Source: a virus
Virus record (IMG/VR): IMGVR_UViG_3300036832_000855
Coordinates: 58,420 to 122,419 of that record
Strand: one strand, 5' to 3'
DNA: 64,000 nucleotides
A model generated the notes under the pieces. That model ran no database searches, was not told the DNA's origin, and saw only the letters and a list, made by a program, of their open reading frames with translations. The position numbers were made by a program, and so were the translations under genes. Within the stretch, counting starts at the first letter, position 1; each line of letters begins with the position of its first letter. Shown in pieces: positions 18,156 through 59,317 of this stretch.

Positions 18156-18467
18156 CTATCCCTCCTCGTCGCCTTCGGTCTGGACCGGCTGTTCGAGCCA
18201 CGCGTCGACCTTCGCCTTGGCCTCGGGCGCAGTCATCATCCCGTCCAGGTCGCCGCTCAGCGCACCCATAGCGGTGTGCGACGGAACGCCGAGGAAGTCC
18301 GACGACTCCTCGACCAGTTGGGTGACCGGCACCGCAACGACCTCGGGCTCCTCGGAAGCATTCGCGGTGACCTCTGGACCGACCTCGACCGTCTCGGTCG
18401 TCGTGGCTTCGGGCTCGGCCTCAGCAGCCTTGGCTGCCCTGCTCCCGCGGTGCGATGTTTCCGACAT
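18156..18467 (-). CDS. Small acidic virion-region protein
   Basis: GAGGAG ribosome-binding site, upstream of the sheath gene. Confidence 0.6.
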   Translation of the reverse strand: MSETSHRGSRAAKAAEAEPEATTTETVEVGPEVTANASEEPEVVAVPVTQLVEESSDFLGVPSHTAMGALSGDLDGMMTAPEAKAKVDAWLEQPVQTEGDEEG

Positions 18468-18521
18468 TCGTGCTCCTCTCTGTGAACCCCACAGGCGGGC
18501 TGCGCCGATAGTAAGGCTGGA

Positions 18522-19094
18522 TCAGGACCCGGCCACAGATGAGGTTGAGACGCCGACGCCCGTGAGCACCGGCGCAGCCGGAACCGTGTCGGCCAGCCTG
18601 CGCCAGGTCAGGCGCACGTCACAGACCACGGTCCACAGCGTGTTCTCGTCCGGGTCCGGGAACGGCTGCGTCGAAAGGTCGTTGACGCGCATGAACGCGC
18701 GCGGATACCAGGTGCCCGCGTCCCAGTGCTTGACGTGGTAGTAGTTGTACAGCGGCACGCGCAGCGGGCGTCCATCCTCCACGCCGACGCGGAACGCCTT
18801 GTACAGCGTGTTCTCGACCGACTGGGCGAGCAGCATCGCGTGGTCCGGATCTCGCCCCTGCTCGGGGTAGGCAGCGATCACGAACGGCTGCACCATGTCA
18901 GCCACCCAGCGCCCGCCGGTCAGCGGGTACGTCGTTCCAGCAACCTGCCAGACGCGGGCGAACGGCCGGGCGAACGCACCCTCCTCGCGCGACAGGCGCA
19001 CCTCCCAGTCGTCGCCGAGCGCAACCGCGACGTAGCGCTTGACGCTGCGCAGCGCGTCGATGTGGCTGCGCCCCACGTCCGGATCGGCGCTCAC
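18522..19094 (-). CDS. Tail terminator/tail completion protein
   Basis: Size and position between the HK97 gp10-like gene and the sheath. Confidence 0.6.
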   Translation of the reverse strand: MSADPDVGRSHIDALRSVKRYVAVALGDDWEVRLSREEGAFARPFARVWQVAGTTYPLTGGRWVADMVQPFVIAAYPEQGRDPDHAMLLAQSVENTLYKAFRVGVEDGRPLRVPLYNYYHVKHWDAGTWYPRAFMRVNDLSTQPFPDPDENTLWTVVCDVRLTWRRLADTVPAAPVLTGVGVSTSSVAGS

Positions 19095-19624
19095 TTCGCC
19101 TCGCCCTGGGCCTTCAGCATCTGCTCTTCCATCACTCGCGTGAAGTCCCGGAGATCTGCGTCCAGGGCCGGGTCACCGGCCTCCAACACGGCAGCCGCCT
19201 TCTCGATCATGTGCGCGCCCTCGCTGCCCGGATGCCACACCCGGCGCGCGAACACGCGCATGCCCGTCAGCGGGTCGATCCACGACAGCGCCTGGTTGGG
19301 GGGGTGGGGCTCGATCAGGTACTTGCGATGCTGCGGGCCGAACAGCCCCGTCCCGTAGTTCACGTACGGCGCGTAGTCGACGTCCGTCTTGACCCTCCCC
19401 ACGTAGTGCCCTTCGCGCCCCGCAAGCTCGGCCGCCAGCTTGCCGGTCGTGTACCAGCTCGTGCGCAGGTTCCCGGTCCTGATCGGCGTGTACTCGGCGA
19501 TCAGGTCGTGCAGGCGATCGGTACCGGTGCTCGCCATGCGCCTGGCCGACTCCCGCGCCGGTTCGGGCGCGAAGGCGTTGGAGAGGCTCGGCCCGTAGTA
19601 CTTGGCTTCGAGCGCGGCCGCTAT
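19091..19624 (-). CDS. HK97 gp10-like neck/tail completion protein
   Basis: TPIRTGNLRTSW, VDYAPYVNYGTG and VWHPG motifs; start uncertain (in-frame ATA at 19624 or a downstream ATG). Confidence 0.8.
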   Translation of the reverse strand: MAAALEAKYYGPSLSNAFAPEPARESARRMASTGTDRLHDLIAEYTPIRTGNLRTSWYTTGKLAAELAGREGHYVGRVKTDVDYAPYVNYGTGLFGPQHRKYLIEPHPPNQALSWIDPLTGMRVFARRVWHPGSEGAHMIEKAAAVLEAGDPALDADLRDFTRVMEEQMLKAQGEAK

Positions 19625-20019
19625 AGCTCGGCCCTCTCGAACGGATGCTCTTCCACGCGGGTGATGTTCGCCATCCAGCCGATCAGCTTGCGCTTCTTGC
19701 GGATCGGCTCGCCATCGGAGGTGATCTCGTACAGCGCATCGCCGAGCTGCTTGGAGTTGACCCACAGCCGGTCCGCTGCGCTGATCGTCACCACGCCGCC
19801 GTCGAAGTCCTTGACGCCGCACAGGATCGTGCCGGGGTGCGGTACGCGCCGACGCCCCGCCTGCGGATCGTCGGACTCGGGCGCTGGCGAGAGCTGCAGA
19901 CGGACCTTGAACCACGGGCCGTTCAACGTCCGGAAGATGGTCGTGCCCTCGACCTTCTCGCCGGTCGGCGTCTCGGTCACGCGCCGGGCTCGGTCGACCA
20001 GCGCGGCGTTGAGCGACAC
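19621..20019 (-). CDS. Head closure (stopper) protein
   Basis: GTG start at 20019; ADRLWV...LYEITSDGEP; canonical position. Confidence 0.65.
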   Translation of the reverse strand: MSLNAALVDRARRVTETPTGEKVEGTTIFRTLNGPWFKVRLQLSPAPESDDPQAGRRRVPHPGTILCGVKDFDGGVVTISAADRLWVNSKQLGDALYEITSDGEPIRKKRKLIGWMANITRVEEHPFERAEL

Positions 20020-20020
20020 C

Positions 20021-20860
20021 CTACGCGCCCCAGACGGTCGGGTCGAGCACCGGCCCTTGGAACGCACCGACGCCGTGGGAGTACGGGTACAGCCCGTCAT
20101 AGTTGCCCCAATCGGCCTCGGTGACCTCGAAGGTAGGGATGCTCGCGTTCTGCAGGACGAACCGCCAGTACTGCTGCATCTCGGGCGTGCAGAGCAGCCA
20201 GATGTCGGTGTTGAGCCGCGGGTCCGGGTTGATGTCTGGCAGGCCGATCGGCATGACGTTGCGCCGCGTCGCGCGTCCCGGCTCCTTCCGGGTCTCGGAG
20301 TAGTTGCCCGCCGTGAACGACTGGATCAGGTCGTCGGCCGACGTCTCGACGTAGTCAGGCTGGCTCTTGAACACCTCCTGCTCGACCTCAAGCTGGTAGG
20401 CGTCCTGCGCAATCGGCACGAGCGGCGGCGGCATCGTCGCGTCCATGGCCCGGCCGGTGACCGCGGTCAGGTACGCCGTCGCCCGGACGATCTGGATCTG
20501 TAGCTCGGCGTCGGTGTACGGCGCGTCGAGCGACGAGAAGTCGATCCGGCTCCAGCTCTGGAGGTCAGCGACGCTCGGCGGCAACGCAGTCGGTGGGGGC
20601 GCTGCCAGGATCGGCCCCCACCCGGTGGTCATCGCCGAAGCCGACGAACTGTCCACGCTACTGGAGACCGTCACCGTGCATGTGATCGTCGTCCCAAGGT
20701 CCGACGCGACCAGCGTGAGGATGCCGCTGCTTCCGGTGTCGGTCCCGTTGCTCCACACGTAGTGGAACGTGTCGCCACCGCCCTGCGACACCAGGCACTG
20801 CACCGACCCGCCGACGAACATATCGCCGTCGAGGACCGCAGAGGTGATCGTTACGGGCAC
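20021..20860 (-). CDS. Head-tail adaptor with N-terminal Ig-like domain
   Basis: FHYVWS...LVASDLGTTITCTVTV Ig-like strands, then helical adaptor-like region with QSFTAGNYSET. Confidence 0.65.
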   Translation of the reverse strand: MPVTITSAVLDGDMFVGGSVQCLVSQGGGDTFHYVWSNGTDTGSSGILTLVASDLGTTITCTVTVSSSVDSSSASAMTTGWGPILAAPPPTALPPSVADLQSWSRIDFSSLDAPYTDAELQIQIVRATAYLTAVTGRAMDATMPPPLVPIAQDAYQLEVEQEVFKSQPDYVETSADDLIQSFTAGNYSETRKEPGRATRRNVMPIGLPDINPDPRLNTDIWLLCTPEMQQYWRFVLQNASIPTFEVTEADWGNYDGLYPYSHGVGAFQGPVLDPTVWGA

Positions 20861-21361: not shown

Positions 21362-22426
21362 TTACGGCACGATGGCGCGGTACGCCCCGCGCGGGTCGAC
21401 CGGGGCCACGCCGAAGTCCGAGCGGACCTTGAAGTCCACCGAGTCCAGCTCGAACTGGTACGGATCGGTTCCGGCGCCGAGCGCCATGCGAACCATCGGG
21501 TCCTTCAGCATCACCTGCGGCTCGCTCTGCCCGTTGAGGAAACCCACAGCGAACGCTGGGACGTCACCCGGGTCCGCGAACAGGTACCAGTCGTTGGCGT
21601 CCGAGAACCACGGGTCGCGGATGATGCCGTCGGCGGGAAGGATCCCGGCCAGCGGGTTGATCGTGCCCTTGTCGAACACGTTCGACCCGACACCGGCCGC
21701 GCCCGTGTACTGGATGTTCACGCCAGTCTGGGCGGAGTTGAGGATCCGCTGCGCGATGAGCTGCATCCGTGCGTTCTTGACCACCATGATCTGCGGCGTA
21801 ACGACGATCTGCCGCCCGTCGTCGTCGAGCTGTCCTTCCATGTACGCGATGGCGTCCGCGAGCGCGTCCTCCGCCAGCGGCGTGACCACCTGGTTGGTGC
21901 GGCCGCCCGCGCCGGTGCTGTAGAACGGGTTGCCGTCCACCCAGTTGCCGGGGTTCTGGATCATGGCGATCACGGCCTGGAGGATGAACACCCCCGCCGC
22001 GTAGCCCATGTCGGCCGGGTTGCGGTTCAGCAGCTCGTTGGAGTCGTCGTTGATGATCGCCTGCCGGGTGATCGAGTACACGCCGCCGTACGTGTCGACC
22101 GCCAACCGGACTGCCGGGCGCTCCGACCGGGTCAGGGCCGTGTAGTTGCCGTGGTCGCCCACGTACCCGATCCCGAGCAGGCCGTTCAGGCCGCGCAGGC
22201 GTCGGTCGCGGAAGTCCGGTGCGGACTCCTGGCGGGTATAGCGCTGATACTGCGCCTGAGCGCGGCTGTAGCCGGTCCACATCGACTGGCGGACTGGGCC
22301 GTACAGGAAGGACGGGAAGTCGGCCTTAGAGTCGGCCTCCTCCAGGACACGCTCGTCCCGCCATTCGCGATACGCCTCAAGCAGCCGGATCGGCCGCCCG
22401 AACACGCCGTATGGATTGCCGTTCAT
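21362..22426 (-). CDS. Major capsid protein (Mu gpT-like, HK97 fold)
   Basis: ADFPSFL, TYGGVYSITRQAIINDD, WYLFADP, VGFLNGQSEP, FKVRSDFG..VDPRGAY. Confidence 0.92.
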   Translation of the reverse strand: MNGNPYGVFGRPIRLLEAYREWRDERVLEEADSKADFPSFLYGPVRQSMWTGYSRAQAQYQRYTRQESAPDFRDRRLRGLNGLLGIGYVGDHGNYTALTRSERPAVRLAVDTYGGVYSITRQAIINDDSNELLNRNPADMGYAAGVFILQAVIAMIQNPGNWVDGNPFYSTGAGGRTNQVVTPLAEDALADAIAYMEGQLDDDGRQIVVTPQIMVVKNARMQLIAQRILNSAQTGVNIQYTGAAGVGSNVFDKGTINPLAGILPADGIIRDPWFSDANDWYLFADPGDVPAFAVGFLNGQSEPQVMLKDPMVRMALGAGTDPYQFELDSVDFKVRSDFGVAPVDPRGAYRAIVP

Positions 22427-22528
22427 CGTTGCTCCTTGGGTATGTGACTGTGATCCCCGCCAAGGCGCAACGCGCCCATGATGATGCCCGAGGGCCGACT
22501 CAGCCGGGTGGGGGAACCGGGCTGAGAA

Positions 22529-22942
22529 CTAGACGAAGCTGTCCTTCGTATCCAGGTCGATACGGACCTTTCCCGGCGGCGTACCGCGCGGCCCGCCCGC
22601 CCCGCCTGCGGGACCACCGTTCTCGACGATCCGGCCGAACTTCGGGCTGCCGGTGGCCGTCACAAGGTTGTTGGTCGCGTTGATGTAGATCGGCGTGCCC
22701 ATCGCAGCGGCAGCGATACCGGCGTCGGCGTTGGACACCTGGACCACGCCCTTCGTGATGATGAAGTACGGCTCGCCTGCGTCGATGACCGCCTGATTGG
22801 CGAGTCCCTGATCCCACGCCCGCTGCTTCTGCTTGACCGCGACGCCGACGAAGCCGGACGCGACGTGGTTGACCGCCTGTCCGTGATTGAGGGTGGCCGC
22901 GGCGGTGACGTAGACACCGGAGCCTGGGCGGTTATACGGCAT
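22529..22942 (-). CDS. Capsid decoration/cement protein (DUF2190-like)
   Basis: FVGVAV...KGVVQV...GTPIYI pattern; lies between scaffold and major capsid genes. Confidence 0.75.
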   Translation of the reverse strand: MPYNRPGSGVYVTAAATLNHGQAVNHVASGFVGVAVKQKQRAWDQGLANQAVIDAGEPYFIITKGVVQVSNADAGIAAAAMGTPIYINATNNLVTATGSPKFGRIVENGGPAGGAGGPRGTPPGKVRIDLDTKDSFV

Positions 22943-22970
22943 GACTCACTCCTTTCTGGCCCCGATGGCC

Positions 22971-24464
22971 TCAGTCGTCCCACGCTGTCGAGGGATCGAC
23001 ACCCGATTCCTGAAGGAGAGCGCCGTAGAGCGTTCCCTCGCCCTTCTTCGGCTCCTCGCCGTCCTCACCGCGCTTGCCGGGAGCACCCGGCCCCTGGCCG
23101 CGAACGGTCGCCGGGTTCGCCGCCGCGAGCAGCTCGCGCTGATCCTGGACGGTGGTGTCCACCGCCTCCTGGAGCTTGGCGGCTGCCTTCTTGGTGACGT
23201 TGCCGTCGTCGTCGACATCGTCGACCACGTCCAGCTTCGGCGTCGGACCGTCATCGCCGATCTCGAACTGCGCCTTGGCGCGATCCGAGAACGCTCCCGG
23301 AAGCTTGGCCTCGCTGATTCGCCGGTGAGCCGCGTCGCGCATGTCCCGCAGCTCAAGCTGTCGATCAGCGTCAGCGCGCGCCTCCGCGCGGATCAGCTCC
23401 CGCTCGCCCGCTACCGCCGACTCGACCAGCGTCTTGACGCGCTGCTCGACCATCGGCTCGACGATTTCATCGAGTGCACTCCGGAAGTCCTCACTTTGGA
23501 GAGCCTCCTGGAGCGCCTCTGGGGTGATGCCCATGTCTGTCTCCTCTGTGTTGGCTTCCTGCGTCTGCTTGGCGAGCGCCTGCTTCGCCATCGCCTCGGC
23601 CTGGCCCCGGCTGAGCTTCGGGTTGCGCTTCAGCAGCCGCGCGACCATCTCCTCCAGCTCGTCGTCGCCCTGGTCCGACGCGTCCTCCGCGTCGCCGTCG
23701 CCCTGCTCGGTGAGTAGGTGCGGGCGGACCTCTTCGACGTAGGCGATGAACTCCTCGTCGGTCATCGACTCCAGCAATCCCATCCCGTCCTCCTCGTAGG
23801 CAGCCTCCATCAACGCGACGACGCGGCCGCCAGCGCCCGCCTCAGTCACCCAGTCAACGCTTCCGCGATCTTCGATGCCCTCGACCAGCCACGCCCGGCG
23901 GCCGTCACGCATGATCGGCTGCACGCCGGTGGCGTTCGCGGAGATCGAAGCCTCGACCAGCTCCGGGTCGTTCTCAGCCAGCTCGCGGATGAACGGTGTC
24001 GGCAGCGACCACCCGACCACGGCCCCCTGGCCGAATCCCTTTCCCGCATCGGGTGGCACGCTGCCGTCCCAGTAACTCTCGACGATCCGCCCGCCCAGGT
24101 CACGGATCGAGCGCGGCAGGCCTTTGGCTGCGCGCCGCGCCTCTGGAGAGAGGTGGTCGATGTACTGCCGCCAGCCCGCGAACTTGTGGGCGTTCTCCTC
24201 CAGCATCTTGGCCTCGTAGAGGTGACGGCCCTTGCCCTTGCCGAGGCATGGCCGCAGGATGTGGAGCGGCAGCAGCTTGGAGCGTTCCTGCTCCTCGCGC
24301 GCGGTGGCCTCTTCGAGACCCACGCCGCGGTCGACGAGCCGCTGGACACGCTCTTCCTGCAGCTCGACGGGGAACGGAACGGCCGTGCGCGGGAGCGCGT
24401 ACATCGCCTCCCGCAGCTCAAGTGTTTCTGTTGGGGGGGCTGTGGTGACCGCGGTGGCACTCAT
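22971..24464 (-). CDS. Prohead protease fused to scaffold
   Basis: YIDH...RSIRDLGG...SISA...SVDWVTEAGAGG protease-like N-terminal half; acidic coiled-coil C-terminal half with many LxE(A/S) sites. Confidence 0.85.
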   Translation of the reverse strand: MSATAVTTAPPTETLELREAMYALPRTAVPFPVELQEERVQRLVDRGVGLEEATAREEQERSKLLPLHILRPCLGKGKGRHLYEAKMLEENAHKFAGWRQYIDHLSPEARRAAKGLPRSIRDLGGRIVESYWDGSVPPDAGKGFGQGAVVGWSLPTPFIRELAENDPELVEASISANATGVQPIMRDGRRAWLVEGIEDRGSVDWVTEAGAGGRVVALMEAAYEEDGMGLLESMTDEEFIAYVEEVRPHLLTEQGDGDAEDASDQGDDELEEMVARLLKRNPKLSRGQAEAMAKQALAKQTQEANTEETDMGITPEALQEALQSEDFRSALDEIVEPMVEQRVKTLVESAVAGERELIRAEARADADRQLELRDMRDAAHRRISEAKLPGAFSDRAKAQFEIGDDGPTPKLDVVDDVDDDGNVTKKAAAKLQEAVDTTVQDQRELLAAANPATVRGQGPGAPGKRGEDGEEPKKGEGTLYGALLQESGVDPSTAWDD

Positions 24465-33461: not shown

Positions 33462-33830
33462 TCACGCCGCGGCGGCGGTGCCCCAGGTGTCGGGCAGCAG
33501 AGAGGTCAGCTTCAGCCGCTTGGCCATCGCGATGATGTGCGCCTTGATCGCCGCCTTGTCCGGCGGGTTGCCGCGGCCGAACGCTTTGATCGCAGCCTTG
33601 AGGTCGCCGACGTGCTTGATCGGGTAGCGCCCGCCGGGCATCGCATGCCCCTTCTTCTCCAGCGTGGCGCGCTCCTTGGTCGAGACGTCGCGCTCCTCAA
33701 GCTGGCGGCGGAGCACTCGCTCGCGCGCGCGAGCACGCACGAAGTCGGTCGAGTTGGCCGCTTCCTGGCGGTCCAGGACGGCCTCCTGGAGCCGGTACCA
33801 GGGATCCGGTGCGGGTTCAAGCAGAGTCAC
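33462..33830 (-). CDS. DUF6582-like putative head-associated protein
   Basis: GTG start at 33830; GHAMPGGRYPI..DLKAAIKAFGR...HIIAMAKRL..LLPDTW. Confidence 0.7.
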   Translation of the reverse strand: MTLLEPAPDPWYRLQEAVLDRQEAANSTDFVRARARERVLRRQLEERDVSTKERATLEKKGHAMPGGRYPIKHVGDLKAAIKAFGRGNPPDKAAIKAHIIAMAKRLKLTSLLPDTWGTAAAA

Positions 33831-35404
33831 TTCTTTCTCCTTCCAAAAGCCTCGTAGTCCGCCGCGACCTCGGCACTCGATCGGGGTGTCGCCCCGGCGC
33901 GGATGCGGGACACGCGGGGATCCTTCATTCCGGCCGGTAGGTGCCTTTCGGGCGCGAACTCGAAGTCCTGATGCTGACGGGGCAACCCGCCGCCTTCCTT
34001 GGGTTTGCCGAGACTGCCGATCACGTCCACCCACTTACCGGCACGGCCACGGGGGTGAAGCGCCTCCTTGAACAGTCCGGCCTCGGCCAGCCGGGCGCGC
34101 AGCACCTTCTCGCGCGCTCGGGCACGCGCGAATTCGTCGCCGGTCTTCGCAGCCTTGCGCGCCAGCACAGCCTCGGCCAGCAAGGACACCGTCCGGGTGT
34201 AGTCGCGGCCGTCCGGGATCGTCGGGTTGGACCGGACGAGCGCGTCGGCCGTCGGCCCGGTCGGCTGCTCACGGCCGTCTGGGATCGTCAGGTCGGGCGG
34301 GTTGGCCATCGCACCGGAGGGCGCAAAGATCGGCTTGTCGTAGGTGGGCGTGCTCTCGCGGCCGTCCATGATCGGGTTTGACGGCGTGCCGCCGTAGCCG
34401 AAGATGAGCGTCGTCTCCTCCAGCCGCTTGATTCTCGTCACGGCGGTCTCCTTCTCGATGGGCTGCTCGGCGTGGTACTTCAAGGTCGCTGGCGCCTTCT
34501 TGGGCGGCGCGAGCTTCATCCGGCTCCCGCCAGTCCGGCTGCCGTGGCGCGGGGTCGGCGCCCTGGTTCGCAACACCGCGGGCTGCCCTGGGATCTTCTT
34601 CGTGGCCGCGCTCGCAGCGGTCTTCGCCTTGGCCTTGGCCTTCGTCGTGGTCTTGGCGGCGCTCGCCGCCAGCCCGATCAGCAGGCCCTTCGTCTCAGGC
34701 CCGACAACGCCGTCGACGGCGAGCCCGTTCGCCTGCTGCAGCTTGCGCACGGCCGCTTCCGTCTGCGGGCCGAAGCGGCCGTCCTTCGTGACCCTATACC
34801 CGGCGGCGGTGAGCGTCGCCTGCAGGTTCGAGACCGCGGGGCTGGCCGTGCCGGTCAGGCCCGCGCCCTGCTGCAGGTTGGCGGTGCCGAGATGACCCGG
34901 GCCCTGGACGGTGGCGTTCAGGGCCTTCGAGAGCCCCGCTGCGGCCGTAGTCGTCCCGCCCTTGCCCTTGGTCGTCTTGCCCGTCGCCTTAGCCTTCGAG
35001 ACCTTCTTGGTCTTCGTGGAGATCGGCGTGCCCTTCGCGGTGAGCCCCAGCGCCTTCTGCGTCTGCGCAAGCGTCTGGTCCGGCGGGTTCTGCATGATCG
35101 CCATCGTCGCCGCGTCGATGTTGCCGCTTCCCGCGAGCCCGTAGCGGTTCTGGAACGCCGCGACGGCCAGCTTCGTCTGCGGCCCGTACTTGCCGTCAGC
35201 CGTAACCTTGAAGCCGAGCTGCTGCAAGCGCTGCTGGAGCTGCAGGGTCGTCTGGTCAGGCCCGGCCGCCCCGTGTCCGGCGCCGTAGCTGACTATCCAC
35301 TTCCCACCCCTCCCCCGGGGGTGGAGCTGCGACTGCCAAGCACCGGTGCCGGTGGGCGGCGGAGCTGCTGGCGGGGGAGCGGCTGGAGGCGCGGAGACCG
35401 ACAC
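33827..35404 (-). CDS. Protein with two peptidoglycan-binding domains and two LHPRGRxGKW motifs
   Basis: LQ..L...G(F/Y)..DG.(Y/F)GPQT..AV...Q...GL..G twice; Lys/Ala/Thr-rich linkers; no catalytic domain recognised. Confidence 0.8.
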   Translation of the reverse strand: MSVSAPPAAPPPAAPPPTGTGAWQSQLHPRGRGGKWIVSYGAGHGAAGPDQTTLQLQQRLQQLGFKVTADGKYGPQTKLAVAAFQNRYGLAGSGNIDAATMAIMQNPPDQTLAQTQKALGLTAKGTPISTKTKKVSKAKATGKTTKGKGGTTTAAAGLSKALNATVQGPGHLGTANLQQGAGLTGTASPAVSNLQATLTAAGYRVTKDGRFGPQTEAAVRKLQQANGLAVDGVVGPETKGLLIGLAASAAKTTTKAKAKAKTAASAATKKIPGQPAVLRTRAPTPRHGSRTGGSRMKLAPPKKAPATLKYHAEQPIEKETAVTRIKRLEETTLIFGYGGTPSNPIMDGRESTPTYDKPIFAPSGAMANPPDLTIPDGREQPTGPTADALVRSNPTIPDGRDYTRTVSLLAEAVLARKAAKTGDEFARARAREKVLRARLAEAGLFKEALHPRGRAGKWVDVIGSLGKPKEGGGLPRQHQDFEFAPERHLPAGMKDPRVSRIRAGATPRSSAEVAADYEAFGRRKK

Positions 35405-39640: not shown

Positions 39641-39854
39641 CCTCGGCGTCGTCCCGGCTGCCGGGATACTGCCAGGCCAGTCGGGGCCTGGCTAGCGCCC
39701 GTCGTGAGCAATCCCGCACGTAGCGAGAACTTCGGCCACGTGCGGACGTTGCTATTACAGTGAAGAAGTCTTGCGCAAGCGCGGCCGGGCGCGCCCAGCG
39801 CCCCCCAGCCCAAGCCCCCATGGGCGGCGCGTCCGGCCGACGAACTTCGAAAGG

Positions 39855-39927
39855 CAGCGCCAGGGAGGGTCGAACTCCCGCTTCCGCCTTGAGAGGGCGG
39901 CGTCCTGGCCACCTAGACGATGGCGCC
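39855..39927 (-). tRNA. tRNA-Glu (anticodon CTC)
   Basis: GGCGCCA/TGGCGCT acceptor, GTCTAGGTGGCCAGGAC D arm, CCGCC-CTCTCAA-GGCGG anticodon arm, GGGAG-TTCGACC-CTCCC T arm. Confidence 0.92.
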
Positions 39928-40514: not shown

Positions 40515-40598
40515 GGGCTGGTAGTGGGACTCGAACCCACGACCTTCGGCGCGCGCTAGAGGACTCGCCCCGACGAGCTGCCGCTGCTCCATACCGCC
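40515..40598 (-). tRNA. Aberrant initiator-tRNA-like RNA with an enlarged anticodon arm
   Basis: TGGAGCAGCGGCAGCTCGTCGGG...CCGAAGGTCGTGGGTTCGAGTCCCAC matches the tRNA-fMet body; the anticodon loop is replaced by GCGAGTCCTCTAGCGCGC; bulged A in the acceptor stem. Confidence 0.65.
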
Positions 40599-42770: not shown

Positions 42771-43109
42771 TTACACGCCGTCGGCGATGCGCGTCGACAG
42801 CTCGAACATGATCAGCGCGCTCATGTCCACCGTGACGTTCTCGCCCTCGTACGCCAGCCGGAACGCCACCTCGGCCCACATGATCGTGCGTTTCCACTCG
42901 TGGCGCTCCTCGCGGTCGTGAGGCCAGCGCACCCGGCTGACCGCCCACGGCCACAGCTTCTCCCAGTCGGAGATCCCGGCGCGTTTCTTGCGTACGAGCA
43001 GCACGCGGATCTGCTCCGCCGGGTTGATCGGACGCCCCACGAACTCGTCCGGGTGCCCCGGCGGCAGATCAGGTGCCAGACCCCTCGGTCTCTCCGCTAC
43101 TACCGCCAC
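42771..43109 (-). CDS. Hypothetical protein (candidate immunity partner)
   Basis: Overlaps the 3' end of the upstream gene; Trp-rich helical. Confidence 0.55.
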   Translation of the reverse strand: MAVVAERPRGLAPDLPPGHPDEFVGRPINPAEQIRVLLVRKKRAGISDWEKLWPWAVSRVRWPHDREERHEWKRTIMWAEVAFRLAYEGENVTVDMSALIMFELSTRIADGV

Positions 43110-43785
43110 CCTCAGCCTCTTGTCCCAGGTCCCGCGGCAAGCCGAACTCCTCCGCGATCCAATCGTCAATCGGGGGCGCACCCTGCCGCCAGCCCGGCGG
43201 CGGCGTCCACACCTTCTGCCCCGTGTCCTTGTACTTCAGATCCACCGGCATCGTCGCCTCAAACGGCACGTCGATCCGCAGGCCCGCGTTGCGGATCTGC
43301 TGCTCGGTCATCGGCTGCGCGGCCGCGTCCGCGTCGGGCCCGTCCACCTCGGACGGTGGCGGCTGCGGGACGTCCGCGTCGGAGTCGGCCTCGGCCATGT
43401 AGTCGGGCGACTCGACCGGCGAGAAGTCCTCGTCCGGCCCGGGGTACAGCGGTGCGGTGCCCTTCGACGGCTCGGTCAACCGGTGGCGACCGCCGATCAG
43501 GCCCGCGACCTGCTCCGCGCTCGACGGCCACAGCCGGTCGCGGTCGATCGAGTGCTGCATCATCCAGCCGCCGTCGTCCTGCGAGAACACGTCGCCTTCC
43601 GCCGGGCCGTTCGTGCGGTACGGCGTCACGGCGTCGCGGAGCCAGTAGTCGTAGTCGCCGCCGTCGAGGGTGAAGTTGCCGGTCGACGCGTCCGGCGGCT
43701 GAAGGTTCGGCCGGATCGTCGACGGGTCGACGGACGAGTCCTGGGTGCTGCCTGGGTCGGCGGGCGCCAGCGGGTCGCGTGCCAT
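43069..43785 (-). CDS. Acidic Pro/Asp-rich protein coupled to the Zeta/RelA gene
   Basis: TGATG overlap at 43785; strongly acidic. Confidence 0.7.
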   Translation of the reverse strand: MARDPLAPADPGSTQDSSVDPSTIRPNLQPPDASTGNFTLDGGDYDYWLRDAVTPYRTNGPAEGDVFSQDDGGWMMQHSIDRDRLWPSSAEQVAGLIGGRHRLTEPSKGTAPLYPGPDEDFSPVESPDYMAEADSDADVPQPPPSEVDGPDADAAAQPMTEQQIRNAGLRIDVPFEATMPVDLKYKDTGQKVWTPPPGWRQGAPPIDDWIAEEFGLPRDLGQEAEGGGSSGETEGSGT

Positions 43786-46574
43786 CAGGCCGCCGCTCCC
43801 AACCGGCGCGGCGCGGTCGTCGGCATGCCGCTCGCCAGCCCCGCCGTCTTGCGCCCCAGCTCCTTGATCTTCGCGACCGTCGACGAGCGCTCCGCCTCGT
43901 TGCCGAGCACGGCGTCAGGCTGCCCGTGTATGCCGCCGTGCAGCGACGCGCCCCACGCGCGGTCGTACAGCGGCCTGGCGGTGCTCTGGATGTCACCCGC
44001 GAGCTTCGACTCGTCGTTCGTCGGCTTGCGCTTCTCGGCCGCCGCCCGGCCGGTGACCTGGCGCTCCAGGTCGAACAGGTCGTGGCCCGGCCCGACTTCC
44101 TTCGTCCACCACATCGGGTTGGTGTTGAGCTGCAGCTCGGCCAGCATGCCGCCGGACTCCTTGGGCCCGCGGAGGATCAGTGACATGTCGCCGTAGCCGT
44201 TGGACTCGAACCGCTTCGAGCCGGTCGCGTCCGCCAGCCGCGGCTTGACGTGCTCGACCGTCCAGCCGCCCTGCGCCATCTGCTCCTTGATCTTCGCCAT
44301 CGCGGTCGGCAGGTCGTGCGCCGACGGGACGGTCACGGTCGCGCGGACCATGTCGTGCAGCTCGCGCGCGTCGCCCGCGTGACCCAGCCCGGCGACCTTC
44401 GCGAGCGCGCGCTTCTGGTCCTTCACCGGCGCGATGATCACGTGCGACTTGTCCATGTTCGCGGCGATGTCCTTGCCGGTGTCCTCGAACGACTTGCCGG
44501 ACGAGATGTCGTGAACGTCGGCGCCGAGCGCCGCGGCGACCCCGGCGCCCAGGTCGAGCAGCGCCTTGAAGGCAGGCAGGCCCTTCTGGTTCGCGAGCTT
44601 CGTCAGCTCGCCCACGTCGCCGGTCGGCTGGCCGCTATGCACCTCGGGCGCGGACGGCGTCACTGCCGCCAGGTCCCGGCCGACGTTCCTCTCGACGCCC
44701 TTGTCGATCGAGGTGATCTGCCCGCCGGTCTTCCACGCGCCGCGCTCGGGCGCCTGCACGTCCGGCACGTCCGGGATCGTCTCCGTCGCCTTGTTCAGAA
44801 CCTGCTGGTAGCCGTCGCGGTCCGGGTAGTGCGTGTGGCCGTCCGGCAGCGCTTCCGCGAGCAGCTTCGGCGGGTTGAAGTGGCCGAACTCGTCCTTGCC
44901 CTGGTTCGTGTCGTACACCTGGACATGCACGCCCATGTCCTTCGCGCGCGCCATGACGCCCGGGATCGCCGCCGACACGTCGCGATGCACCGAGCGCATG
45001 ATCACGTCCGGGATGTAGCGCTTGTCGGCGTCCTTCGTCGCGGTCGCCAGCCGGTGATGCGCTCGCTTGAGCGCCTCCTCGGTCGGCACGCTGACGTAGC
45101 TGATCCGCGGGTTGACGTACCCCGCGTCGGTGAAGGTCTTGACCCGGGCGGCGACCTCGTCCGGGCTCGTGTTCGTGATGCCGTCCACGATCACGTTCAT
45201 GCCCTTCTTCTGCGCCATCGCCATCGCCTGCTGGGCGATGTCCCACGCCTCGGTGTACACGCGTAGGTTCGCCTCCGGATCCTCCCCCAGCGACTGCTGG
45301 AACTCGGGCAGCCACGCCTTGATCAGGTCCGGGTCGATCACGACCGCGTCCTTCGGCAACTGGTCCTGAGCCGCCATCTGGCCGAGCAGGCTGCCCTTGC
45401 CCGCCGCGTAGCCGCCGCCGGTGAACAGGACCGTCGGCTTGCCGGACGGCTTCTCCAGCCGCGGCGTGGTCGAACTCAGCCCGATGTCCTTGCCGCGCTC
45501 GTCCGTGCCGTGCTGGCGGAACATCATGTCGATGATCGCCGCGTGCAGCGCCTTGCGCGACGGGTGATACTCGCCGTTGGCGTTGCGGTACATCTGCGCC
45601 GTCGTCGGCTGCGTCGCGGCCTCCTCGACGTAGGACAGCAACGTCTTCTGGCTCACCCGCCCGGCGTCGTTGAAGTGCGTCTCGGCTGTGGTCAGATCCT
45701 GCGGCCCGCTCGGCTTCGCGGCCGCCGGGGTCTCCTTCTCCTTACCAGCCTTGCCGACCTTCCGCTTGATGCGCTTCTCCAGGCCTTTGGTGCGCCGCTG
45801 GTACAGCTCGGCCTGCCCGGCCCTGCGGAGCGAGGGCGGATGAACCTGCGACGCCTCGTAGTGCTCGGCCGCCTTCGCGTGCTCGCCCGCGTCGGTGTAG
45901 TGCTGAGCCGCCGTCAGGTGATCGCCCTTCGCGACGGCCGCCTCGGCCTTCTCGCGCGACTTGTCGGCCTTCTCGCCCTCCTTCGGGCGCTGCCCGGCCC
46001 TGTCCGCTCTGCGCTCCGCGCTGGCGAGCCGGGCGAGCCGGTCGTGCCCGGCCTGCTGCATCTTCGCGCGCGGCGTCACCTCTTGGCGGAACTGCGCGAC
46101 GCCCATCCGCTCGGGTAGCCCCTCGCCCTCGACGCGCATCCGCTCGCCCGGCGCCTTCGGCGTCGCGAACACCTGGGTCTGCTTGGGTCGGCGGAGCAGT
46201 CCGCGCCGGGTGGTGACCGTGGCGATCGGCTTGTCGACGCCGCCGCCCCTGCGCTCAACCCGCTCGACGCGCGGCCCCTTGATCCGGGCGACGCGCCTGT
46301 TCGTCGCCTCGCCCGGCTTGATCTGCTTGTCGAGCTTCTCCACCCACTTGCCACCCCGCCCACGGGGGTGAAGGATCTCGGCCCACGACGACTCCTGCAG
46401 CCCCTGGACGCCCAGCTCCAGCACGCCCGCCTCTTCCCACAGATCGAGGTCGTCGCTGGAGACCCAGCCGATCCGGTCGAGCTGGTCCTCCGTGGCCAGT
46501 CCACGGCGCAGAAACTCCCTGCGGAAGCTCGCGTTCTCGCGCGCAGTGGCCACGGCGTTCATGTTCGGCGCCAT
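43785..46574 (-). CDS. Polyvalent effector: LHPRGRGGKW tag, Zeta-toxin-like P-loop kinase and RelA/SpoT-like nucleotidyltransferase
   Basis: Zeta: FTGGGYAAGKGS, IDPDLIK, VIVDG, EALKRA..R, RYIP. RelA/SpoT-like: APVK..KRALAK, LHDMVRATV, NGYGD, AELQLNT, GHDLF. Confidence 0.85.
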   Translation of the reverse strand: MAPNMNAVATARENASFRREFLRRGLATEDQLDRIGWVSSDDLDLWEEAGVLELGVQGLQESSWAEILHPRGRGGKWVEKLDKQIKPGEATNRRVARIKGPRVERVERRGGGVDKPIATVTTRRGLLRRPKQTQVFATPKAPGERMRVEGEGLPERMGVAQFRQEVTPRAKMQQAGHDRLARLASAERRADRAGQRPKEGEKADKSREKAEAAVAKGDHLTAAQHYTDAGEHAKAAEHYEASQVHPPSLRRAGQAELYQRRTKGLEKRIKRKVGKAGKEKETPAAAKPSGPQDLTTAETHFNDAGRVSQKTLLSYVEEAATQPTTAQMYRNANGEYHPSRKALHAAIIDMMFRQHGTDERGKDIGLSSTTPRLEKPSGKPTVLFTGGGYAAGKGSLLGQMAAQDQLPKDAVVIDPDLIKAWLPEFQQSLGEDPEANLRVYTEAWDIAQQAMAMAQKKGMNVIVDGITNTSPDEVAARVKTFTDAGYVNPRISYVSVPTEEALKRAHHRLATATKDADKRYIPDVIMRSVHRDVSAAIPGVMARAKDMGVHVQVYDTNQGKDEFGHFNPPKLLAEALPDGHTHYPDRDGYQQVLNKATETIPDVPDVQAPERGAWKTGGQITSIDKGVERNVGRDLAAVTPSAPEVHSGQPTGDVGELTKLANQKGLPAFKALLDLGAGVAAALGADVHDISSGKSFEDTGKDIAANMDKSHVIIAPVKDQKRALAKVAGLGHAGDARELHDMVRATVTVPSAHDLPTAMAKIKEQMAQGGWTVEHVKPRLADATGSKRFESNGYGDMSLILRGPKESGGMLAELQLNTNPMWWTKEVGPGHDLFDLERQVTGRAAAEKRKPTNDESKLAGDIQSTARPLYDRAWGASLHGGIHGQPDAVLGNEAERSSTVAKIKELGRKTAGLASGMPTTAPRRLGAAA

Positions 46575-57574: not shown

Positions 57575-59317
57575 TCAGGGAGCCTCCTCTCCCGCGACCG
57601 CTCGCACGTCGTCAGCCCACGCCTTCAAGTCGCTCGCGTGCCGCCGCAACTCGTCAGGCGCGAACTCGCGGCCATCCGCCAGCAGGCCGAGAAGCGCGAC
57701 GATGACCCGCGCCTCCGTGTTGCCCCGAATCAAAAGCCGTTCTTGCACCCGGACCTCCTCCTCGGCGCTACGAATTCGACCGCCGCTGTGGCCCAAGTCA
57801 GGCATATGCCGCCTCCCGACATTGGATGCGCAGCGCAACCGCGTCCTCCCGGCGCATGTAGCCCAGGCCACGCGGGCAGTAGCGCTCGAAGTGCGCCGCG
57901 CAGAGCGCGTAGCCCCGTCGGTCCTCGGGGCCACCCCCAGGCGCAAAGACGCACTTGTGCCACGGGTTGAACACCGAGATCGCCTCCGCTGCGGGCTCGT
58001 GGCAGAGCTTGTGGCAGCACTCCTGCGGCGCAAGAGGTCGACCGCCGCTTTGATTCGGATCCTTGCGCGCAGCAGATGACGACGCCCGGTTCGGCTCCGC
58101 CGCCGTTCTAGGCTGGCCCCGACCCTCCTCGGCTCCGCTGTCTGCCGCGCCGTCATGGCCGCGCGCAAGCTCGCTCGAAACCCCGCCTTGGCTCGGATCA
58201 GGCATCGTCGAACTCCTTGCGTTCCTCGGCCTCGTGGTAAGCCACGTCGGACAATGCTTCCTCGGCGGCCTGCTGGATCGCATCGTTCTCGGGGATGCTG
58301 CGACCCTCTGCCTCGTCGGTGTCGTGATGCCATCTGCTCTGCCACGCCCACACCCATCGCCCGTCTGGCGTCATGCGACTGACGCGGTGCAGCAGTTTGC
58401 CGTCAACCGTTCGTGACGTTTCGGATCGGCTCAGATCAGGCATCGGGAGCCTCCGTCGCTCGAAAGGGGTCAACGATCGGCCAAGGTCCGCAGCGATAGC
58501 AGCCGCAGATCGTCGCGATCGTGGGCGGATCGGCTAGCGAGTACAGCTCATCCTCGTCGCACCGTGGGCAGTAAGGCCAGCCGTCAGGCCGCCAGCGTCG
58601 ATAACCAAGCCTTCCTGACGTTTCGGATTGGCTCACGGTCACGTGTCGCCCTCGCAGCCCCGGCGGAACGCCTGCGTCTCCGGGTCGTAGCGATACCAGC
58701 ACACCACGTCGGCGAGCGGCATGTCGCCGCGCCACTCGTCGGTCACGCCGGTCGGCCGGTGGCAGTGCTGGCACTCGCCGCCGTCGGCGAGCTGGTCGCA
58801 CAGCCGCATGACGGCCTCGACCGGATTCATCGCCGCCGCCGCCTCGAACGCCTGGCGGCCGGGCTTGTTCTTCGCAACCGGACGGCCGCTCGGCCCGAGG
58901 TGATACTCGGCGACGGCCATCCACACCACCGGCTGCTCGTCGTCGGAGTAGCGGATCTGGAAGCTCGTGGCGCCGGTGCGCCCGATGAACTTGGCGCCCG
59001 CGGCCAGGCGCGGATCGTCAGTCGGCGGTGTCTTCATCGGGCTCGGGCTCGTCGTCGAAGCCGCAGTCGTCGCAGACCGTGTCGTCCGCCGCGATGTGGC
59101 CACCGCACTCCGGGCATTTGCGGCACAGCGGCAGACCCATCTGCGCGAACTCGGGGTCCTCGCAGATGTAGCAGCCCTCCCGGTGGATCACCGGCGTCGA
59201 GGTGAAGCTGTCGGTCAGCAGCACGTGGGCCAGGTCGTCCGGCCTGGTCCAGGGACCGAGGCCACGCTCGCGGCGCTGCTCGTCGGTCAGTAGCCAGCGG
59301 GGATCCGGTTCGCTCAT
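57575..59317 (-). other. Cassette of small, mostly Cys/Zn-motif hypothetical CDSs
   Basis: For example 57798-58205, 58198-58443, 58639-59036 (CQHC) and 59018-59317 (CYIC, CPEC, CDDC). Confidence 0.55.

Follow-up and report, generated by a model that had tools for sequence, protein, structure and literature searches.

A phage polyvalent-type protein joining a putative zeta/AvrRxo1-family kinase, a Tas1-type synthetase domain and a repeated peptide tag

How would a bacteriophage use one protein that carries two nucleotide-directed enzyme domains, and by what route would such a protein reach a host cell? These questions are raised by a gene for a 929-residue protein (P0001; 43785-46574, minus strand) in the virus record IMGVR_UViG_3300036832_000855, the right half of which we analysed as one window of 64,000 nucleotides (positions 58,420 to 122,419 of the 122,419-bp record). 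Positions refer to this window unless given as genome coordinates, in which the gene lies at 102204-104993. An initial annotation had described the product as an injected protein with two enzymatic warheads that rewires wall-precursor and nucleotide or translation metabolism at infection, an interpretation that our analysis partly supports. We favour, with moderate confidence, the reading that it is a phage-type polyvalent protein without a MuF domain, probably packaged into the head by means of a short peptide tag; with much the same assurance we assign it four parts, namely a helical N-terminal module, the disordered tag, a kinase of the zeta/AvrRxo1 family and an adenosine 3'-pyrophosphokinase of the Tas1/Apk family. 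The role of phage-borne (p)ppApp synthetases in infection is an open question according to the authors of PMC10083569 (what is said here of this and other cited papers refers to portions of their text). The phage offers an unusual test case, in that its genome appears to be complete and not a prophage, a Tas1-type synthetase is joined to a second, nucleotide-directed kinase of a toxin family, and the matching hydrolase sits on a separate protein with the same tag beside the portal gene.

Two enzyme domains in one polypeptide

The open reading frame (ORF) is real, because its third-position GC content of 0.93 is as expected in a genome of 68% GC, and the initial annotation stands on this point. 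The listed start is an ATG; homologues start at the position of Met5 (46562), no clear Shine-Dalgarno sequence lies ahead of either candidate ATG, and Met5 may be the true start. Twenty-four other proteins match the whole query, most of them 870-955 residues long and encoded on uncultured-phage contigs of up to 125 kb, and their names hold nothing functional beyond 'Zeta toxin'; the family is represented by seven IMG/VR loci. The 929-residue protein had no match in NCBIfam or PADLOC, and a single-sequence search of the PDB returned spurious lectin repeats only.

The central part of the protein is a P-loop kinase domain of zeta/AvrRxo1 type (residues 296-606; 44757-45689, minus strand), recognised by Pfam, Foldseek and VIA. 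Pfam Zeta_toxin (PF06414) matches residues 375-557 (44904-45452) with an E-value of 1.1e-21, over profile positions 11-188 of 199 and at 77.6 bits against a cut-off of 22.3; this core lies within the interval of about 44800-45560 in which a Zeta-type kinase had been noticed at first. The same stretch falls in the PHROGs 'minor head protein' family phrog_16619 (E 7.3e-14). Residues 1-640 were modelled with AlphaFold2 from a 25-row alignment (mean predicted local distance difference test, pLDDT, 81.0; predicted template modelling score, pTM, 0.74), and the fold-search rows for this model spanned residues 327-599 only. Foldseek ranked AvrRxo1-ORF1 (E 4.4e-8) before zeta (2.1e-7) and PezT (2.8e-6), and VIA-align gave the same order, with AvrRxo1 (4z8u_A) at Z 19.9 (248 residues aligned, root-mean-square deviation (rmsd) 4.0), zeta (1gvn_B) at Z 17.0 (221, 3.4) and PezT at Z 15.9 (213, 3.7), followed by gonococcal zeta at Z 11.7 and generic polynucleotide and adenylate kinases at Z 9-11. 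In a HMMER alignment to 1gvn_B, which also places the Walker A loop GGGYAAGKGS at residues 386-395 (45390-45419, minus strand), K393 corresponds to zeta K46, D416 (45327-45329) to D67 and D464 to E116, and all three are invariant in 25 sequences. A 20-row profile of the family matches zeta weakly (E 0.097). One homologue (P0018, 1311 residues) has some 400 additional residues that part GGGYA from SGKGG exactly within the Walker A loop. This insert, in which Pfam recognises Hom_end and LAGLIDADG_3, starts with Pro, not Cys or Ser; it may be an atypical intein, and because this intein-like insert sits there, as inteins favour, the P-loop appears to be a constrained site. From conservation and modelled fold it is credible that the kinase is an active member of the zeta/AvrRxo1 family. 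The kinase model resembles the NAD 3'-kinase AvrRxo1 somewhat more closely than it does the UDP-N-acetylglucosamine (UDP-GlcNAc) kinases; the wall-precursor target proposed at the outset agrees with the zeta family but is not secure, since the structural resemblance leans towards AvrRxo1.

The C-terminal part holds a RelA/SpoT-fold synthetase domain of Tas1/Apk type (residues 652-885; 43920-44621, minus strand), assigned through its AlphaFold2 model (mean pLDDT 90.6, pTM 0.87), VIA and profile comparison. Foldseek placed RelP, Tas1 and SAS1 at the top (E about 4e-5, probability 1.00). In VIA, RelA/SpoT-family chains fill the first 27 rows (Z 7.8-13.8), led by SAS1 at Z 13.8 (176 aligned, rmsd 3.2), Tas1 at Z 13.7 (166, 2.2, 26% identity) and RelP at Z 13.4, with CapRel at Z 12.2 (181, rmsd 3.0); FaRel2 comes lower, at Z 7.0. 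Thus the per-domain fold comparison that had been suggested for this protein came out in favour of both assignments (Z 17-19.9 for zeta and AvrRxo1, Z 12-13.8 for the RelA/SpoT synthetases). A 28-row profile was far more selective: searched against PDB sequences it matched Tas1 at E 1e-20, followed by an exported Streptomyces synthetase (SaSAS) at 9e-6 and by GTP pyrophosphokinases at 1e-4 or weaker, and CapRel and FaRel2 were absent at E<=1. The motifs D741-M-V-R744, G793-Y794-G-D796 and E813-L-Q815 are invariant in 20 family members, and all lie inside the interval 44060-44440 where an alarmone-synthetase-like domain had been marked from these very motifs. In 28 distant homologues K718, K726, D741, R744, D796, E813 and H831 are invariant, and Y794 and Q815, invariant in the 20 close members, are kept in at least 90%. 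The conserved syn motifs, comprising basic ATP-binding residues, D-x-x-R, G-Y, E-x-Q and H...Y-E, are all present. At syn2 this domain reads R-x-T, which resembles the Apk2 signature RYT of PMC12226406; syn3, G-Y-G-D, and syn4, E-L-Q-L-N-T, are peculiar to the family. By these sequence criteria the domain belongs to the Tas1/Apk branch, and (p)ppApp synthesis is therefore its most likely activity. Of the products considered initially, (p)ppApp is thus favoured by the Tas1 profile, and (p)ppGpp synthesis or modification of the tRNA CCA end appears less likely.

An exhaustive HMMER search with residues 640-929 over 1.84 billion representative proteins returned 402 with E<=1e-3 (136 of them with E<=1e-10 and five with E<=1e-30), in which the synthetase homologue is mostly C-terminal, within proteins of 151-4048 residues. 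The link to Pfam RelA_SpoT is transitive, with matches in 17 of 28 short sequences (the query, residues 640-929, P0026, plus 27 matches; best E 1.1e-7) and in nine of 39 long ones, chosen for length among 150 listed of the 402. In these 39 long homologues Pfam recognised Portal_Mu in four, Phage_portal_3, Phage_portal_2 and Phage_Mu_F in one each, ART-PolyVal in three, Zeta_toxin in three, and InPase and ddrB-ParB in one each, and SNF2 helicase, NUDIX and topoisomerase IB also occur as partner domains. Among deposited phages, tblastn with the 929-residue protein returned five records, none at 80% coverage or more and none with both domains, from a collection that may lack near-identical entries. 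In the Bordetella phage vB_BbrM_PHB04 (MF663786.1, 5098-7363) a 'hypothetical protein' encoded directly after the portal ends in a Tas1/Apk-like domain that is 31% identical to residues 708-927; next come a 69-residue ORF and a 192-residue HD protein annotated as (p)ppGpp synthetase/hydrolase. A cultured phage of lytic type thus has three genes in an Apk2-like arrangement, apparently not annotated as such. Cyanophage PSS2 carries a zeta-like domain in its 1499-residue 'head morphogenesis' protein gp030, downstream of the portal.

A modular N-terminus, a repeated tag and the phage that encodes them

The cargo-like N-terminus noticed in the initial annotation takes the form of a conserved helical module (residues 5-61; 46392-46562, minus strand), modelled by AlphaFold2 as helices 5-23, 29-34, 40-48 and 52-61 with pLDDT of about 75-86 and ending in a conserved G-L-x-E. 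A word-based search with residues 1-110 found the protein's own family only; a hidden Markov model of residues 8-80 detected it in 18 more proteins that have the synthetase domain but are not members of the close family. Nine of these were scanned with Pfam, and the middle was Zeta_toxin in four, an acetyltransferase in one and unrecognised in four. Conversely, three distant orthologues (L004, L006 and L007; 534, 672 and 727 residues) comprise the N-terminal module, the tag and the kinase without the synthetase, which was not found elsewhere on their partly incomplete contigs. The build is modular, with one head piece, variable middles and a synthetase present or absent, since the N-terminal module is joined to differing middles and the synthetase is missing from distant orthologues. 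Between the tag and the kinase lie a small beta sheet (residues 103-136) and long helices (residues 159-273, pLDDT 76-93), together at 45756-46277 on the minus strand in the AlphaFold2 model. Hence the basic linker described at first holds for residues 61-98, which are modelled as disordered, but not for the folded sheet and helices that follow. An Atlas search with residues 1-290 gave no usable match, and its structure rows, with template modelling scores of 0.23-0.35, were uninformative.

The tag, LQESSWAEILHPRGRGGKWV (residues 59-78; 46341-46400, minus strand), consists of 20 residues ending in LHPRGRGGKW, directly follows the conserved G-L-Q-E that closes the helical module, and is modelled as disordered; residues 61-98, with pLDDT below 50, form the sole long stretch of low confidence in the N-terminal half. 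A six-frame scan of the genome found eight copies in five proteins, all in coding frames of the minus strand: one in the 929-residue protein, two in a peptidoglycan-binding protein (33827-35404), two in each of the proteins at genome 14458-18429 and 10708-14172, and one in that at genome 8069-10750. The last three, all large, are encoded directly after the portal gene on the same strand. An extended form, aromatic-x-E-x-L-H-P-R, is present in seven of the eight copies, and L-x-E-[AS] occurs at most 13 residues upstream of the tag in four of eight, where chance would give 0.013 per window (binomial tail about 2e-6), yet the elements belong to one conserved motif and are not independent events. 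The DNA pattern of the tag has 5, 6, 7, 0 and 4 copies in five related contigs, all on the coding strand, with none for the reversed control, and the exact form was found in 24 IMG/VR stretches. Similar peptides of the form HPR-x-x-x-G-x-F/W occur in 25 of 174 proteins collected, the 929-residue protein and a fragment of it included. A full-text literature search returned no relevant paper on the letters of the tag, and the text of the MuF toxin paper contains neither 'HPR' nor 'linker' nor 'cleavage'. Its position, its disorder and the company of the other tagged proteins suggest that the tag may act in loading or cutting.

The second tagged protein in the window (33827-35404, minus strand; 525 residues) has two PG_binding_1 repeats according to Pfam and PHROGs, tags at 35297-35323 and 34031-34057, long low-complexity linkers and no recognised catalytic domain. 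We rejected it as an endolysin, the PHROGs label being due to the peptidoglycan-binding repeats alone. Two of the portal-adjacent tagged proteins, of 1323 residues (genome 14458-18429, minus strand) and 893 residues (genome 8069-10750, minus strand), have hardly any recognisable domains, one showing a weak GNAT match together with phrog_2563 and the other nothing.

The genome is rated complete and has direct terminal repeats (DTR). It encodes a contractile-tailed phage with tail sheath, tape measure, HK97-type capsid protein and baseplate J protein, a gpA-type large terminase and a portal (genome 18459-20501; phrog_10963, E 1.6e-27), and the majority of genes that pass a codon-position GC screen are on the minus strand. 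With blastn the tape-measure gene had no match among deposited phages, and promoter and terminator scans gave counts at or below shuffle expectation. Terminase (genome 32302-34080) and portal are more than 45 kb away from the scaffold and capsid genes (21362-24464; genome 79781-82883), a split of the head module that is unusual for a DTR genome. A MuF domain (PF04233) was found nowhere in the complete genome at E<=0.1, in a search that was positive in five of 14 control genomes, which bears out the initial statement that none is present. It had been concluded from this that the delivery route may be new; the N-terminal module with its tag does look undescribed, but polyvalent proteins without MuF are already described in PMC5512222.

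A partner gene, a matching hydrolase and a possible course of infection

Two further components had escaped the initial annotation, namely a translationally coupled partner gene and, elsewhere in the genome, an Aph1-like hydrolase. The partner gene (43069-43785, minus strand) encodes 238 residues, and its ATG overlaps the TGA of the 929-residue ORF upstream (TGATG). Its product had no match in Pfam, PHROGs, PDB or PADLOC, and it is predicted to bind the kinase domain. When residues 290-929 were modelled in complex with it, the interface score ipSAE was 0.65 (runs 0.65, 0.63 and 0.73) as compared with 0.00 for the best control; the ipSAE mark is reached by 58 of 80 solved complexes and by two of 110 mismatched pairs. 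At least 10% of contacts recur between the runs, the pLDDT of the partner is at least 34, and all confident contacts lie on the kinase (residues 304-372, 423-457, 520-525 and 593-615), none on the synthetase. A partner homologue adjoins the gene in three related genomes (G001, G002 and G003) and is separated from it by no more than about 0.6 kb (G005) or 5 kb (G006) in two others; in G007 (L007 9824-12007) the two genes are fused, the C-terminal tail of the kinase ORF being homologous to partner residues 112-220, and in G004 no homologue was found. Three of the genomes compared have no synthetase. Databases hold 30 partner homologues, none of them annotated, and 11 of the 30 come from a contig equal in length to that of a polyvalent homologue, one of these contigs being only 6,182 bp long. 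The neighbouring small ORF of up to 136 residues (42771-43181, minus strand) is kept in the three closest relatives (69-86% identity in L001-L003), had no match in L004-L007 and none in PDB or PADLOC. ARAGORN also placed a tRNA-Glu(CTC) at 39853-39927 and an 84-nucleotide tRNA-Thr(AGT) at 40515-40598, both on the minus strand, and a weak PADLOC match of a 95-residue upstream ORF to PbeC (E 0.0016) was disregarded.

The candidate hydrolase is part of the third portal-adjacent tagged protein (genome 10708-14172, minus strand; 1154 residues), which comprises a CCA-adding enzyme (PolyA_pol, tRNA_NucTran2_2 and HD), a second HD region and DUF7178. One of its tags precedes the CCA-adding enzyme, the other the hydrolase domain with DUF7178. 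The best PDB match of the second HD region is a (p)ppApp hydrolase (7smg_A, E 7.1e-9), before Rel hydrolase domains at 9.6e-7. Judged by these homologies, the phage would encode both halves of a (p)ppApp cycle; across relatives the coupling of synthetase and Aph1-like hydrolase is not strict.

A kinase and a nucleotidyltransferase-fold synthetase are thus combined in one polypeptide, in a phage with gpA-type terminase and portal. The class of phage polyvalent proteins fits because two enzyme types occur in one protein and both are listed for that class, RelA/SpoT and zeta-toxin-like kinase domains being named among the domains of phage polyvalent and MuF proteins in PMC5512222. Circumstantial support for injection comes from the tag shared with three portal-adjacent polyproteins and, by analogy, from other phages in which this synthetase domain is fused to a portal or to MuF. 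What the analysis shows is the ORF, its two folds with their conserved catalytic residues, the recurrence of the tag and the linkage of the genes; from these we infer how packaging, cleavage, substrates, timing and the two enzyme activities might fit together. The tag, which marks four other multi-domain proteins of the phage as well, would address the protein to the procapsid and perhaps mark a site for trimming, and the protein would be ejected from the head along with the DNA. Once inside the new host, its Apk domain would turn ATP or ADP into (p)ppApp, with ATP as pyrophosphate donor, and so quickly lower the adenine-nucleotide pool; the target of the kinase would be a sugar 3'-hydroxyl on a nucleotide cofactor or precursor, be it NAD as with AvrRxo1 or UDP-GlcNAc as with zeta. 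Two brakes can be envisaged: the coupled 238-residue protein may sit on the kinase in the manner of epsilon or AvrRxo1-ORF2, and the Aph1-like domain of the tagged portal-adjacent polyprotein could reverse the product of the Apk domain. A bolder version, to which we give only a tentative place, holds that the tag (L-x-E-S/A-x-aromatic-x-E-x-L-H-P-R-G-R-G-G-K-W) replaces MuF in this phage clade, loads at least five enzyme cargo proteins into the head and perhaps cuts them free, that a complete (p)ppApp cycle is split over two of them and that the AvrRxo1-like kinase comes with its own inhibitor. The halves of that cycle would be the Tas1-type synthetase of the 929-residue protein and, next to the portal, an Aph1-type hydrolase joined to a CCA-adding enzyme. 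Should all this hold, infection would begin with a sharp drop in the host's adenine nucleotides that is both timed and reversible.

Several observations weigh against the packaged, two-enzyme reading. Neither a Phage_Mu_F nor a portal domain was found by Pfam in the 929-residue protein, and its gene is far from the portal (genome 102204-104993 as against 18459-20501), within a run of small genes. Searches for a head-maturation protease were negative: Pfam S78 gave no match, nor did a search for a gp21-like S77 protease, whose control was uninformative, and a 497-residue scaffold-like protein upstream of the capsid gene matched nothing in Pfam or PDB, so that these searches yielded no enzyme for cleavage at the tag. 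On the side of the enzymes, the 929-residue protein itself has no Pfam RelA_SpoT (PF04607) match at E<=1, and in its Walker A motif the lysine is followed by Gly in place of the customary Ser or Thr; a comparable GKG loop occurs in adenylate kinases. For the partner, the complex model leaves its own fold uncertain and draws on an alignment of only three rows; no immunity gene like Tis1 or IapK was recognised beside the synthetase, both downstream ORFs lacking a match to any solved chain, and the hydrolase was found in three of five synthetase-bearing genomes and in one of three without synthetase, several of these contigs being incomplete.

These points lend some weight to a different use of the same enzymes, as an unpackaged factor for host takeover or nucleotide reprogramming that is made in the infected cell, with the tag as a shared linker or interaction motif. 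A gene in a tight run of small genes, distant from the portal and with the capsid gene some 20 kb downstream of it, would suit such a factor, as would the want of a MuF or portal domain and of an identified protease. We nevertheless think it unlikely, though deserving serious consideration, because the same tag is borne by the three polyproteins encoded directly after the portal, because the synthetase domain is fused to a portal or MuF domain in seven of the 39 long homologues scanned, and because a Tas1-type enzyme made in bulk in the very cell that produces the phage would be expected to drain the ATP required for replication and packaging, to judge from the toxicity of Tas1 and Apk2 (PMC10083569).

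Quite improbable, in our view, is that the kinase and the 238-residue protein form a toxin-antitoxin-like pair, the whole protein then serving to exclude competing phages, or for addiction in a lysogen, instead of acting in infection. The partner is translationally coupled and predicted to bind the kinase (0.65 as against 0.00 for the best control), the order of kinase gene and then partner is that of AvrRxo1-ORF1:ORF2, and IMG/VR lists one related contig as a provirus; but the genome, rated complete, ends in direct terminal repeats, no PADLOC defence model was matched, and a 929-residue multi-domain build with N-terminal module and tag is unlike two-gene toxins. An equally low chance is given to the C-terminal domain being a tRNA 3'-CCA pyrophosphokinase like CapRel or FaRel2 instead of a (p)ppApp synthetase. 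CapRel does score less than two Z units below the best rows (Z 12.2, 181 residues, rmsd 3.0), and the phage has tRNA genes and a CCA-adding domain in a tagged polyprotein that could repair or replace tRNA ends. Against this, the profile matches Tas1 some 15 orders of magnitude better than other solved synthetases and does not reach CapRel or FaRel2 at E<=1; Tas1 also has the lowest rmsd (2.2) and highest identity (26%), FaRel2 has a Z of 7.0, an Aph1-like (p)ppApp hydrolase domain is encoded in the same genome, and R-x-T at syn2 fits the Apk signature RYT given in PMC12226406. A head-packaged polyvalent protein with a Tas1/Apk-type synthetase is therefore the reading that we carry into the comparison with known systems. 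If its tag is a packaging or cutting signal, it would provide a sequence handle for head-carried effectors in uncultured high-GC phages without MuF. The partner protein, for its part, would represent a novel type of inhibitor acting on zeta/AvrRxo1-type kinases.

Comparison with known systems

In phage T4, head cargo bears capsid-targeting sequences that are cut off by gp21 at (L/I)-x-E sites. The N-terminal module described here likewise ends in L-x-E, and L-x-E-[AS] precedes four of the eight tags; unlike in T4, no gp21-like (S77) protease was detected, in a search whose control was uninformative, and we know of no T4 counterpart of the HPRGRGGKW peptide.

The closest match to the synthetase by sequence profile is Tas1/Apk1 (PDB 6ox6; E 1e-20, Z 13.7, rmsd 2.2 over 166 residues, 26% identity), but Tas1 has a PAAR domain and is delivered by type VI secretion with Tis1 encoded alongside, whereas the domain here belongs to a phage polyprotein. 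Apk2 MuF polymorphic toxins, which have immunity of the IapK/Tis1 and Aph1 types (PMC10083569, PMC12226406), share with it a C-terminal Tas1-type synthetase in a phage protein, an Aph1-like hydrolase and R-x-T at syn2. The 929-residue protein lacks two of their defining features, since a MuF domain is missing and its gene does not adjoin the portal; it also has an extra kinase and comes from what appears to be a complete DTR genome, not from a prophage, its hydrolase lies in another polyprotein about 90 kb away, and no adjacent Tis1/IapK-like gene was recognised. Its syn3 (G-Y-G-D) and syn4 (E-L-Q-L-N-T) moreover differ from the GxN and YH signatures of Apk2 (PMC12226406).

For the kinase, the systems to compare are AvrRxo1-ORF1:ORF2, epsilon/zeta and PezAT (4z8u, 1gvn and 2p5t). 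The folds agree (Z 19.9, 17.0 and 15.9), the equivalents of K46, D67 and E116 are conserved, and the small coupled gene here is predicted to encode a protein that covers a face of the kinase, an arrangement alike in logic to epsilon/zeta and AvrRxo1-ORF1:ORF2. The differences are an identity of 13-17%, the GKGS of Walker A, the placement of the kinase inside a 929-residue protein and a partner without sequence likeness to any solved chain.

Phage-type polyvalent proteins (Iyer, Burroughs, Anand, de Souza and Aravind 2017, PMC5512222) are the class that the protein fits as a whole. As there, unrelated enzyme domains stand in one polypeptide, in a phage with portal-terminase packaging, and homologues of the synthetase co-occur with ART-PolyVal, ddrB-ParB, InPase, SNF2, portal and MuF domains. 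In the portions of PMC5512222 considered, zeta and RelA/SpoT domains are not described together and the tag is not mentioned; the 929-residue gene also lies outside the head-gene neighbourhood and its product has no MPTase peptidase. Polyvalent phage proteins that combine several enzymes, and that are believed to travel in the virus head, are already known, and it is the arrangement that is new here: a zeta/AvrRxo1 kinase combined with a Tas1-type synthetase, the tag, the kinase partner, and a synthetase and hydrolase pair split over two proteins.

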